This document shows, piece by piece, positions 1-2,193 of a DNA stretch of 64,000 nucleotides (its first letter is position 1; each line of letters begins with the position of its first letter). A model generated the notes under the pieces. That model made no database searches, had not been told where the DNA came from, and saw nothing but the letters and a program-made list of their open reading frames with translations. Origin of the DNA: Methanomassiliicoccaceae archaeon (lineage in GTDB: Archaea; Thermoplasmatota; Thermoplasmata; Methanomassiliicoccales; Methanomassiliicoccaceae); NCBI GenBank assembly GCA_963728405.1, contig CAVSJV010000005.1, positions 96,001 through 160,000 on the forward strand, written 5' to 3'. Both the position numbers and the translations under genes were made by a program.

Positions 1-627
1 GGCCAGGTCCAGTCCCTGGATGGGCAAGAGCCCGTAATTGTCCATGATATCGAAGATAGCTGGTGGCAGGAACGCGCACAGGAGGACCAGCGCCTGTCTC
101 TTGTACAACGAGTTGGCCCCCCTGGCCGAATCGATGAGGAGCATTATGGCGGCGAGCATGACCGCATAAGCGTAGGCAAGGTAGATCCAATACCACGGTC
201 CGGCCGCGCTTTGTAGGATCGACGGGCCGCCCTCCGCCACGCTGAAGTCGTATAGGAACAGATCGTGGAACGGGGCGGTGAACGCCATTAGCACGGTTAT
301 GAGCGGGACGACCGAGACGATGATACCGTTCAGCCTGGTAAGCCACGACCCCCGCCCACTGTGTTCGGTGAGCAGGGCGAATACCACAACACAAATGAAC
401 GGTGCAACTGTGAATTTAAGTTGCATCATGAGGACCTTTTCATCGAGGCCAGTGAGGAGGATATCGATGGCCTGAAAAAGGGACCACGCGGCGGTTAGCG
501 CGGTCAACGCTTGAAAATACTTGGTCTCCGGTAGTCCGGAAAACCGTCGGCTATAGAGGTATAGCGCAATGGCCATTGTTACGGCACTTAGCGGCAACCA
601 GACGATGGGGGTGTAAGTAAACGTCAG
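1..627 (-). CDS. N-terminal 7TM sensor region of a histidine kinase (HisKA_7TM-like), partial at window edge
   Basis: Manual minus-strand translation gives serial hydrophobic helices (LTFTYTPIVWLPLSAVTMAIALYLY...GPWYWIYLAYAYAVMLAAIMLL...YKRQA). Start codon uncertain; first in-frame ATG at 577. Confidence 0.65.
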   Translation of the reverse strand, partial: MTFTYTPIVWLPLSAVTMAIALYLYSRRFSGLPETKYFQALTALTAAWSLFQAIDILLTGLDEKVLMMQLKFTVAPFICVVVFALLTEHSGRGSWLTRLNGIIVSVVPLITVLMAFTAPFHDLFLYDFSVAEGGPSILQSAAGPWYWIYLAYAYAVMLAAIMLLIDSARGANSLYKRQALVLLCAFLPPAIFDIMDNYGLLPIQGLDLA

Positions 628-879
628 CGAACACCTGGCTGTGGTCTCATCGGGCCCTTATAATAATAGATTTATGTTCATAAAATCAAAAATGGTCCCT
701 CTTGACCCCCAATCACGCTGGTCACTGGTCCGAAAAAGATGATATGCCGACCTTGCCATCGTCCGAGCAACGCGGGGGATCACTCTTCTATCCAGCAGTT
801 AAAAAATATATGTTTTCGACATAGATCTTCGGTGACCTCTCCATAAAACGTTTAAATGTTCTTGGCGTTGAATAATTAG

Positions 880-2018
880 ATGATACTAACCGCTTTGTTG
901 AAGCTGCTACCTACACAGGAGCAGTATGCTCTCCTTCTCGAGACCATGGAGCGCTTCAATCAAGCGTGTAACAAAATATCTTCAATCGCTTTCCACGAGA
1001 ACAATATCAACCGCATCTCACTACAAAACAATGTTATTACGGTGTGAGGGAAGACTTCGGCCTATCTGCTCAAATGACCATTCTGGCCACGAGAAAGGTA
1101 GCCGACACTTATCGAACAGATATCGAGAGCATCCGCATACGTAACAAGTCTCGGCCTAAAGGCACAACGGAAGAACAACTGAAACGGCATAAGTTCAAAA
1201 AACACGGAGGAGTACAGTACGACATACGATGCCTCTCATGGAAAGGTGAGGATCGAATATCGATTCTGACCCTCAGGGGGCGGATCGAAATACCCTTGGT
1301 GTTCAGCGGCTATGATAAAAATTCCATCTTGATCAATATCCGGGGTGAGTGCGACTTGTTGTATCGAAAGAACAAGTTCTACCTTGCGGTTTGTTATGAG
1401 GCTCCAGAAGAATGTCATTATGTTCCAACTGGCTTCATGGGAGTTGATCTGGGTCGAAAGAACATTGCTTCCATGAGCGATGGAAATCTGTTCTGTGGCG
1501 AAGCTTGCGAGAGAACCAGGAAGCACTATGTGGAGCTAAGGGCCCTATATCGGTCAGTGGGTACAAAATCGGCCAGGAAGCATCTTGCCAGACTAGCTAG
1601 GAAAGAGTGCAGTTTCAAATCGAACGAGAATCATTCGATCAGCAAGAATTTAGTATCCCAAGCCAAAGGCACGGAGCGAGGTATTGCATTGGAAGAGCTA
1701 ACTTACATACCTCGTCAGAAGACGGCTAAAGGGGCTCGGGATGCTTCTTCAAAGTGGGCATTCAGGCAGCTATGCACGTTCATAGAATACAAGGCGAAGT
1801 TAGCTGGTGTGCCAATCGTCCTCGTTGATCCTGCATACACATCGCAATGTTGCAGCGTGTGCGGCTTCGTACACAAGGGCAATCGTAAGAGTCAATCAGA
1901 GTTTGTATGTTTAGAATGCGGTCACGAAGAGAACGCAGACGTGAACGCCGCGAAGAACATACAAGCAAGGGCTGCTGTCAATCAGCCTATAGTCGTCCGT
2001 CATGCCGCCGAGGCATGA
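880..2018 (+). CDS. tnpB: TnpB RNA-guided endonuclease (IS200/IS605 family, solo/IS1341-like), one frameshift at ~1025
   Basis: ATG at 880 gives MILTALLKLLPTQEQ...ETMERFNQACN and joins the 1044 ORF after a missing A in an A-run. RuvC residues GVDLG, IALEEL and NADVNAAKNI are intact; Zn-finger CSVCG/CLECG. TTTAAA promoter box at ~851. Confidence 0.9.
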
Positions 2019-2080
2019 AGTTGGAACGGCAAGCGTCCTCCACTGATGGACGCTGTTGATGCCTGGCCAACGGTATATCC
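1965..2080 (+). ncRNA. Putative TnpB omegaRNA / element right end, with guide at ~2061-2080
   Basis: Hairpin AGCGTCC (2032-2038) / GGACGCT (2048-2054) followed by GTTGAT, resembling IS200/IS605 right ends. An extra CATGCC/GGCATG hairpin overlaps the tnpB stop. 5' boundary is a guess. Confidence 0.6.
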
Positions 2081-2193
2081 CATCGTAGGCGCTCAGTCGG
2101 AATATTTGAACAAATTATTTGGTTTAATCCGCACACTTCGAGCTTCGATAGCTAAAAAGGATGATATACTAACTTTTGTATGGTCAGCTACAC

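Follow-up and report, generated by a model that had tools for sequence, protein, structure and literature searches.

Here, we present an analysis of a tnpB element in a 64,000-nt stretch of DNA (the window) from the genome of a Methanomassiliicoccaceae archaeon (2.73 Mb, 93.75% complete; G000 among the labels Gnnn used below for genomes, with Lnnn denoting fetched loci). By comparison with relatives, the element demonstrably splits a former tRNA-Leu(UAA) gene, of which the promoter, the leader and 7 nt lie to its left and the D-loop to its right. Because tnpB sits inside the old tRNA-Leu copy, its predicted guide is a piece of tRNA. A working tRNA-Leu(UAA) gene with its own promoter starts 133 nt beyond the right end of the element. 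In our best explanation, to which we assign a probability of about 0.6, this is a fixed element devoid of tnpA whose TnpB-omegaRNA complex would target element-free tRNA-Leu(UAA) alleles and so support TnpA-independent homing, and the working copy would escape. The original prediction, made from the letters of the window, had described an element inside a decayed tRNA-Leu gene with a tRNA-derived guide; both points stood, and the gene can be specified as a tRNA-Leu(UAA) copy. As a whole, its observation was partly confirmed, the main points holding and a supposed variable-arm resemblance failing, and its interpretation was partly supported.

On the left side of the element, the box GATGATAT (738-745) is followed after 26 nt by GCGGGGG (772-778, plus strand), the heptamer that opens the tRNA acceptor stem; at the working tRNA gene, box and heptamer recur with identical spacing (2160-2167 and 2194-2200). 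The window contains two copies of the composite pattern GATGATAT-N26-GCGGGGG, which 100 shuffles of the window never produced; the whole genome has these two copies, both at this locus, and no copy of the reversed pattern used as a genome-wide control. GCGGGGG is the form of tRNA-Leu(UAA), and the remaining Leu tRNAs of the genome begin with GCAGGGG or GCGAGGG. Judged by the leaders, the resemblance is wider than first described, extending over 45 nt: in the 45 nt preceding each GCGGGGG, 26 positions are identical without gaps, compared with a maximum of 24 among 20,000 random genomic 45-mers (mean 10.7, SD 2.9). The relic promoter AAAAAGATGATAT (733-745) and its leader thus occupy 731-771 on the plus strand. 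On the right side, the 13-mer GCCTGGCCAACGG (2061-2073), unique in its own genome, follows directly after the right-end hairpin and represents the D-loop; the right flank matches the tRNA D-arm at 13/13 bases in the window and at 15/15 bases in G008. All of these coordinates had been given correctly by the original prediction.

We compared tRNA-Leu(UAA) genes called by ARAGORN among the fetched loci, covering 18 genomes (our own and 17 relatives). The consensus of the relatives reads GCGGGGGTAGTCAA|GCCTGGCCAACGGCGCGGGACTTAAG. Relatives without tnpB at the locus have one intact tRNA-Leu(UAA) gene, with a leader like that of the left fragment, and the intact genes read ...GTCAA|GCCTGGCCAACGGCG..., i.e., both flanks of the element joined. 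The junction GCGGGGGTAGTCAA|GCCTGGCCAACGGCG is exact in G015, G021 and G023, with neither overlap nor repeat. Because the element-free relatives carry one intact, collinear tRNA-Leu(UAA) gene, the expectation that such genomes would have a tRNA-Leu joining positions ~780 and 2061 is borne out. In contrast to this, the proposal that the sequence past the 13-mer (including ATCCCATCGTAGGCG) resembles the 3' side of a Leu anticodon and a variable arm did not hold up: its alignment to tRNA-Leu(UAA) lies within the shuffle range, the observed score being reached by 787/2000 shuffles for the window, 596/2000 for G008 and 1163/2000 for G003, and the Rfam tRNA model has no match in 2058-2192; an anticodon, variable or T-arm is thus not recognisable there.

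The two pieces of the old tRNA abut, nt 1-14 and then nt 15-29, without a direct repeat, which argues against an integrase-type event, in which a tRNA-targeting element would have made the 5' fragment and the rebuilt tRNA, with tnpB as mere cargo. The break points likewise argue against it, as they are the ends of an insertion sequence (IS), with a transposon-adjacent motif (TAM) on the left and ...TTGAT on the right, and there is no integrase between 731 and 2193; the integrase at the G003 locus lies only downstream of the tRNA. That integrase element speaks for such an event, as does the similar model proposed for the tRNA-Thr(GGU) locus of Caldiarchaeum subterraneum (Sugahara et al. 2012, PMC3293823); we nevertheless regard it as very improbable. 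In the accessible part of that report, the Caldiarchaeum locus comprises a 5' tRNA fragment, a ~1.9-kb repeated insert with an open reading frame (ORF) on the strand of the tRNA, and a rebuilt tRNA whose rebuilt part extends to ~nt 27; the locus is explained by integrase/att recombination, and this part of the report does not identify the ORF as TnpB. Our locus shares with it the order of 5' fragment, mobile insert and working tRNA and differs from what is accessible there in that the junctions are IS ends. It also differs from att duplication by tyrosine recombinases in having neither an integrase nor border repeats of a tRNA segment. As a side observation, the 813-bp Caldiarchaeum ORF 'b', present in seven copies and described in the accessible part of the 2012 report as a putative recombinase, is a candidate for TnpB homology (PMC3293823).

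TnpB takes its guide (~16 nt in the right-end RNA [reRNA] of ISDra2) from the right flank of its element and its TAM from the left flank (PMC13565253, accessible text), and we therefore examined both ends. A right-end module, CAAGC followed by a hairpin and (G/A)TTGAC/T, is common to the relatives in the order and to the metagenome relatives with readable right ends. The flanks of the relatives diverge past ...TTGAC/T, giving a sharp right boundary, and 6/7 pairs of the terminal hairpin have compensatory changes in a set of 51 distinct aligned modules. In the window, the right end, the predicted 3' part of the omegaRNA scaffold, spans 2019-2060 on the plus strand, with the terminal module CAAGC-hairpin-GTTGAT at 2030-2060; therefore, the guide should start at 2061, and the guide segment (2061-2075) comprises the 13-mer plus TA. 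At the left junction, a TAM-like ATCAC (779-783) directly follows GCGGGGG, at the place where the intact tRNA has TAGTCAA. In the wider family, near-identical members with differing flanks have TCAC (7/8 distinct left flanks) or TTAC (1/8) at this position; in the close clade, we read TTCAA or TTCAT by eye. The start of the left end (784-879) derives from its spacing to the conserved TTCGGTGACC block, which by eye is 44 nt compared with 48-51 nt in the clade; this end is 75% identical to that of G003 and 57% identical to that of G008 and contains a TATA-like TTTAAAT (851-857) ~26 nt before the ATG. A hidden Markov model (HMM) of the left end, built from 30 family members, is silent on the window and thus detects no left-end hairpin of the family type; because it recovers only 2/9 clade members, this silence is weak evidence.

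The tnpB gene (880-2018, plus strand) encodes a protein matching PF07282 (Cas12f1-like_TNB, 1e-24). Its RuvC triad is kept (codons for D at 1446-1448, E at 1692-1694 and D at 1938-1940), and two CxxC pairs of a zinc finger are present. The orthologue in G003 is a 379-residue protein with an intact reading frame, and the orthologue P0001 aligns to the Cas12f structure 9nzq (3.2e-24) and the ISDra2 TnpB structures 8bf8/8h1j (4e-06), with the catalytic motifs GVDLG, LE(N/E)L and NADVNA in register with the solved Cas12f/TnpB chains. The original prediction had called the TnpB catalytically intact; this is right for the residues, but the gene itself is broken into two ORF pieces (880-1047 and 1044-2018) by a 1-nt deletion in an A run. 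The frameshift that had been suspected near 1025 is real in the assembly: the run is A4 at 1025-1028, the frame requires one base more (CAAAAC vs CAGAAAC in G003), and the pieces are joined in a single uninterrupted ORF in 8/8 relatives, unlike in the window. In one DNA run (9% of sampled words), a single 151-nt contig spans 1065-1215, outside 1025-1028. Given the 1-nt deletion in the nuclease gene, the system in this genome is either freshly dead or misassembled.

The original prediction also held in reporting all three acidic RuvC residues and neither tnpA nor a left-end hairpin, the latter subject to the weak test just described. Only tnpB pieces, and no tnpA, lie between 784 and 2060, and Y1_Tnp (PF01797) has 0 matches in the genome; the control search was positive in 6/14 known genomes. 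Of 13 tnpB matches checked among the 16 in this genome, two lie within ~300 nt of a tRNA. A second, distant tnpB on the same contig (G000:C5:441642-442763, 34% amino acid identity) ends ~270 nt upstream of a tRNA-Pro(CGG) gene on the same strand and has no recognisable right end and no tRNA-derived flank.

A close TnpB (E up to 1e-40) is found in 10/261 genomes of the order, and a search of genome contigs for relatives returned four loci, two of them close. At the syntenic locus, the element is present in three species of the genus, i.e., in the window, G003 and G008; DNA identity is 83% to G003 over 731-2075 and 70% to G008 over 824-2280. The locus runs from a conserved gene X through histidine-kinase genes, which differ in number, to tnpB and then tRNA-Leu(UAA). 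Synteny with G008 includes all of these genes; in G003, which has no kinase gene here, it covers gene X, tnpB and the tRNA. Because it is common to three species at a syntenic locus, the arrangement is, on this comparative evidence, old. Its TnpB is, from the substitution pattern, under purifying selection: dN/dS is 0.14 compared with G003 (dS 0.54), and synonymous sites are saturated in the comparison with G008 (pS 0.79). Because tnpB is so strongly constrained, the frameshift in the window must have arisen very recently or else reflect a mistake in the assembly.

Identity to G003 and G008, respectively, is 85% (35/41) and 56% (23/41) for the relic promoter and leader, 85% and 68% for the coding sequence, 69% and 66% for the right-end scaffold, 10/13 and 13/13 for guide positions 1-13, 43% and 29% for guide positions 14-20, and 27% and 29% for the next 60 nt. 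Hence, in the comparison to the distant G008, no other stretch of the locus is as well kept as the guide core, and homology stops 13-15 nt past the right end, i.e., after about one guide length. At an identity of 0.3-0.4 per site, a 13/13 match by chance has a probability of ~1e-7 to 1e-5. The spacer from 2076 to 2153 has no detectable homology to the tRNA or to the spacers of the relatives. As a separate observation, the guide core of G003, GTTCGGCCAACGG, departs from the ancestral form (GCCTGG) and is identical to the D-loop found in the working tRNA-Leu(UAA) of the window.

These patterns bear on the possibility that the locus is a fossil, in which an IS struck one of two tandem tRNA-Leu(UAA) copies and is now functionless, with a guide that is a chance flank and a window copy that is a pseudogene. 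A neutral flank should decay like its surroundings, whereas the guide is kept at 13/13 positions in G008 despite saturated synonymous sites and a spacer of random identity; a dN/dS of 0.14 and intact ORFs in 8/8 relatives point the same way. The frameshift at 1025-1028 is what a fossil would be expected to have, although in a gene under such constraint it must be very recent or an error. A fossil would also fit the lack of tnpA in the genome, the undetected left-end hairpin, the decay of the left heptamer and TAM in G003 and G008, and the fact that the carrier genomes hold no target with a TAM: the 13-mer has 0, 1 and 2 copies elsewhere in the three carriers, all without a TAM, in coding sequence and outside tRNAs. 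Weighing both sides, we consider a fossil unlikely.

The element inserted into the D-arm of tRNA-Leu(UAA), on the 3' side of a TCAA-type motif. In the homing explanation that we prefer, TnpB-omegaRNA would recognise TCAA plus GCCTGGCCAACGG... in the D-arm of the element-free gene, the ancestral form of this target probably being TCAA-GCCTGGCCAACGGCGCGGGA. Cutting would hit element-free alleles, whether carried by sister copies of the chromosome or by incoming DNA, and repair from the occupied allele would keep or spread the cassette without TnpA, in what would be non-restorative homing. TnpA-independent homing, with cutting of element-free alleles and repair from the occupied allele, is described in the accessible text of PMC13565253. 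The guide could stay constant over long times because its target is a conserved, non-drifting tRNA. The cell depends on having a working tRNA-Leu(UAA) spared from cleavage, and the locus provides a copy. This copy may escape through differences at TAM-proximal guide positions: the D-loops of the working copies read GTTCGG in the window and CCAA plus GCTCGG in G008, compared with GCCTGG in the guide, and the window's working tRNA differs from the guide at two positions (2 and 4 of the guide). Its D-arm consists of TCAA (2204-2207) and GTTCGGCCAACGG (2208-2220). As far as the ancestral allele is concerned, the earlier suggestion that the guide could direct cleavage at tRNA-Leu alleles is plausible: the exact site (TCAA plus 15 nt) is present in 3/18 tRNA-Leu(UAA) genes and the 13-mer in 6/18.

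Several observations weigh against homing. Besides the frameshift in the window's tnpB, the match between guide and tRNA covers only 13-15 nt. The left flank reads GCGGGGG-A-TCAC instead of GCGGGGGTAGTCAA; therefore, a loss of 2 nt and one substitution have to be assumed. The heptamer is not kept in the relatives, in which 7/12 (G003) and 2/12 (G008) positions are identical. Five genus members for which the locus was fetched (G001, G002, G004, G005 and G009) do not have the element there, and, based on gene X identity, some element-free members of the genus are closer to the window than G008; therefore, losses or repeated gains are needed. Nor did we see an element-free allele within the species itself. 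Finally, D-loop positions 2-4 vary in element-free members too (G002 GTCAGG, G009 GCATGG, and G001), and the differences that would allow escape may therefore be ordinary drift.

We also considered a domesticated host function, in which the complex would cut incoming DNA with a tRNA-Leu(UAA) D-arm, such as virus-borne tRNA genes or elements with att sites on the 5' side, or would act through sub-cleavage complementarity as a TldR-like regulator of promoter-proximal DNA of tRNA-Leu. The fixation of the locus across species, the degenerate left end and the conservation of guide and protein would fit such a role. Moreover, the G003 tRNA locus marks, by its gene content, an integration hotspot: downstream of tnpB (L039, 3500-11900), a tyrosine recombinase (Phage_integrase, 3e-34) adjoins the tRNA, and four att-type fragments of the tRNA-Leu 3' half (equivalent to 2224-2280 in the window) start from tRNA nt 31 or later. 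But these fragments lack the D-loop and hence the protospacer, and because of this the idea that the element guards the hotspot against tRNA-containing attP sites fails. The proposed search of viruses for the guide with its TAM gave no support either, as the 17-mer TCAAGCCTGGCCAACGG (TAM plus guide) occurs in three viral contigs, in 0/3 of them within a tRNA. Unlike TldRs, the protein has a complete RuvC triad, and the window's own tRNA has neither an integrated element nor an att repeat on its contig. Domestication thus appears improbable to us. Independently of this, the neighbouring tRNA in G003 looks degenerate, with the anticodon AAA and unpaired acceptor strands, and stands beside a run of N.

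A second, independent case of a tnpB element in a tRNA-Leu gene is found in a sister clade. In G021 (L041, 4448-5818) and G019 (L042, 5998-7366), a tnpB element of the same clade of elements, with a TnpB 63% identical in amino acid sequence to that of the window, is located in the T-loop of tRNA-Leu(UAG), after TTCAA. At the empty site in G022 (L161), both flanks are shared and the gene is a plain ...GTGCGTTCAAATCGCACCCCCTGCACCA. The occupied locus consists of the 5' exon ...GTGCGTTCAAA, a 32-nt insert, TCGCACCCCCTGCACCA, the rest of the left end, tnpB, the right end and ATCGCACCCCCT, followed by unrelated sequence. Thus, 12 nt of the old 3' exon are left past the right end, as the guide, while a copy of the 3' exon lies within the left end of the element. 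On manual inspection, the junctions between exons and insert fit a bulge-helix-bulge geometry at tRNA position 59/60, composed of the 5-bp T-stem, the bulge CA|U, UUCA:GGAA (three pairs and an A-G mismatch), the bulge AA|A, and GAACC:GGCUC (4/5 pairs). Canonical cuts would yield a correct 7-nt T-loop, and RNAfold retains the T-stem and a hairpin in the insert. No second tRNA-Leu(UAG) is among the matches listed for G021 (genome 93% complete). The picture fits a rescue of the tRNA-Leu(UAG) by the intron-like insert, by way of predicted splicing. A tRNA-Leu(CAA) gene outside the window (G000:C4:221965-222074), missed by ARAGORN and also present in L066 (G008) and L076 (G019), has a conserved 22-nt hairpin insert in its D-loop, GCCAGG[TCAATGATGA...TCATCGA]CCAAAGG, for which no bulge-helix-bulge register was found by eye.

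We tentatively speculate that TnpB transposons of this lineage home on conserved tRNA loops (TCAA followed by D-loop or T-loop), remodel the tRNA genes and oblige the cell to maintain an immune working copy, although we rate this broader proposal as possible rather than probable. Remodelling would leave 5' fragments with promoters and keep one guide length of the old tRNA. The immune copy would be either a duplicated gene with changes in the seed, as in the window and G008, or a self-rescued gene, as in G021 and G019, in which the left end of the transposon supplies a 32-nt bulge-helix-bulge intron and a replacement 3' exon. If true, non-canonical tRNA introns and split or fragmented tRNA genes in archaea could originate from TnpB elements, which would also represent an archaeal counterpart of the IStrons, relying on the splicing endonuclease of the host.

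Among known systems, the element resembles solo-tnpB IS200/IS605 elements (IS1341-like, with ISDra2 as the model) in its RuvC triad and zinc-finger TNB domain. It resembles the TnpB-reRNA of ISDra2 in having a right-end scaffold with a terminal hairpin, a right-flank guide and a left-flank TAM (PMC13565253, in its accessible portion). In contrast to these elements, it occupies a single orthologous site, as a fixed insertion, in three species; the tRNA D-loop that flanks it is far more conserved than the sequence around it; and its genome lacks TnpA, with the left-end hairpin undetected. In lacking both Y1 TnpA and a detectable left-end hairpin, it is also unlike an autonomous IS200/IS605 transposon. 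As in IStrons, a TnpB element lies inside an RNA gene or other gene without killing the host gene, and TnpB persists in IStron copies devoid of TnpA, a pattern that has been interpreted as intron-like homing (both from the accessible text of PMC13565253). Unlike in IStrons, there is no ribozyme, since no group I intron family is among the Rfam matches in 600-2400 (E up to 10; only the tRNA and two chance hits), and rescue appears to come from a second tRNA copy (window) or from an intron-like insert that fits a bulge-helix-bulge (G021, G019). Type V-K CRISPR-associated transposons use the TnpB-derived Cas12k with a dedicated guide to a tRNA gene (bioRxiv 10.1101/2021.02.06.429022). As far as the accessible text of that preprint allows a comparison, our element differs from them by the absence of Tn7 genes and of a CRISPR array, by intact nuclease residues and by its position inside the tRNA instead of downstream of it. 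TldRs are nuclease-dead, domesticated TnpB repressors, immobile and with a fixed, conserved guide next to a gene (PMC10705468; PMC13565253; both from accessible portions). Measured against that partial description, the element here differs by the presence of the D/E/D triad and the zinc finger and by a guide that matches the tRNA body and not a promoter. In the literature covered (titles and the beginnings of abstracts, supplements excluded), we found no TnpB element with a conserved tRNA-derived guide and no IS end spliced at a bulge-helix-bulge.

TnpB guides normally change at every transposition. A guide that remains constant on a tRNA across species with saturated synonymous sites would therefore imply long-term, TnpA-independent homing on a conserved host gene or another use of the guide. 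To our knowledge, the origin of fragmented and intron-bearing archaeal tRNA genes has been an open question ever since the discovery of split tRNAs. This locus, the T-loop case and the Caldiarchaeum locus of 2012 together suggest a route by which RNA-guided nucleases may create such genes. In the intact orthologues, there would also be a naturally occurring TnpB whose target is defined and conserved, together with target variants that may be naturally 'immune'.

Regarding the remaining features of the locus, the promoter AAAAAGGATGATAT and leader of the working tRNA span 2154-2193 on the plus strand and are identical to the leader of the G008 working copy at 33/45 positions. The working tRNA-Leu(UAA), the sole tRNA in the window, is called by ARAGORN at 2194-2279 on the same strand (2194-2276 plus an encoded CCA) and scores 34.4 bits with the Rfam tRNA model (gathering score 29). 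Calls of tRNA-Leu genes in the intron mode of ARAGORN, with introns of 248-2058 nt, were discarded as false. A linkage of tRNAs to the metagenome tnpB loci was likewise rejected: in 80 such loci (the best 80 of 523 confirmed stretches, with 42-50% amino acid identity), ARAGORN reported two tRNAs, neither fitting the arrangement, one overlapping tnpB on the other strand and one 1.3 kb upstream, also on the other strand. On the left, the N-terminal 7TM part of a HisKA_7TM histidine kinase is encoded at 1-597 on the minus strand (HisKA_7TM, 5.2e-39). It belongs to an array of HisKA_7TM paralogues that lies between gene X and the tRNA, covering window positions 1-645 and the DNA before them (G000:C5 ~92600-96645). 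The copy number of this array varies among relatives (L040, L043 and L047), with none in G003 and about three in G008.

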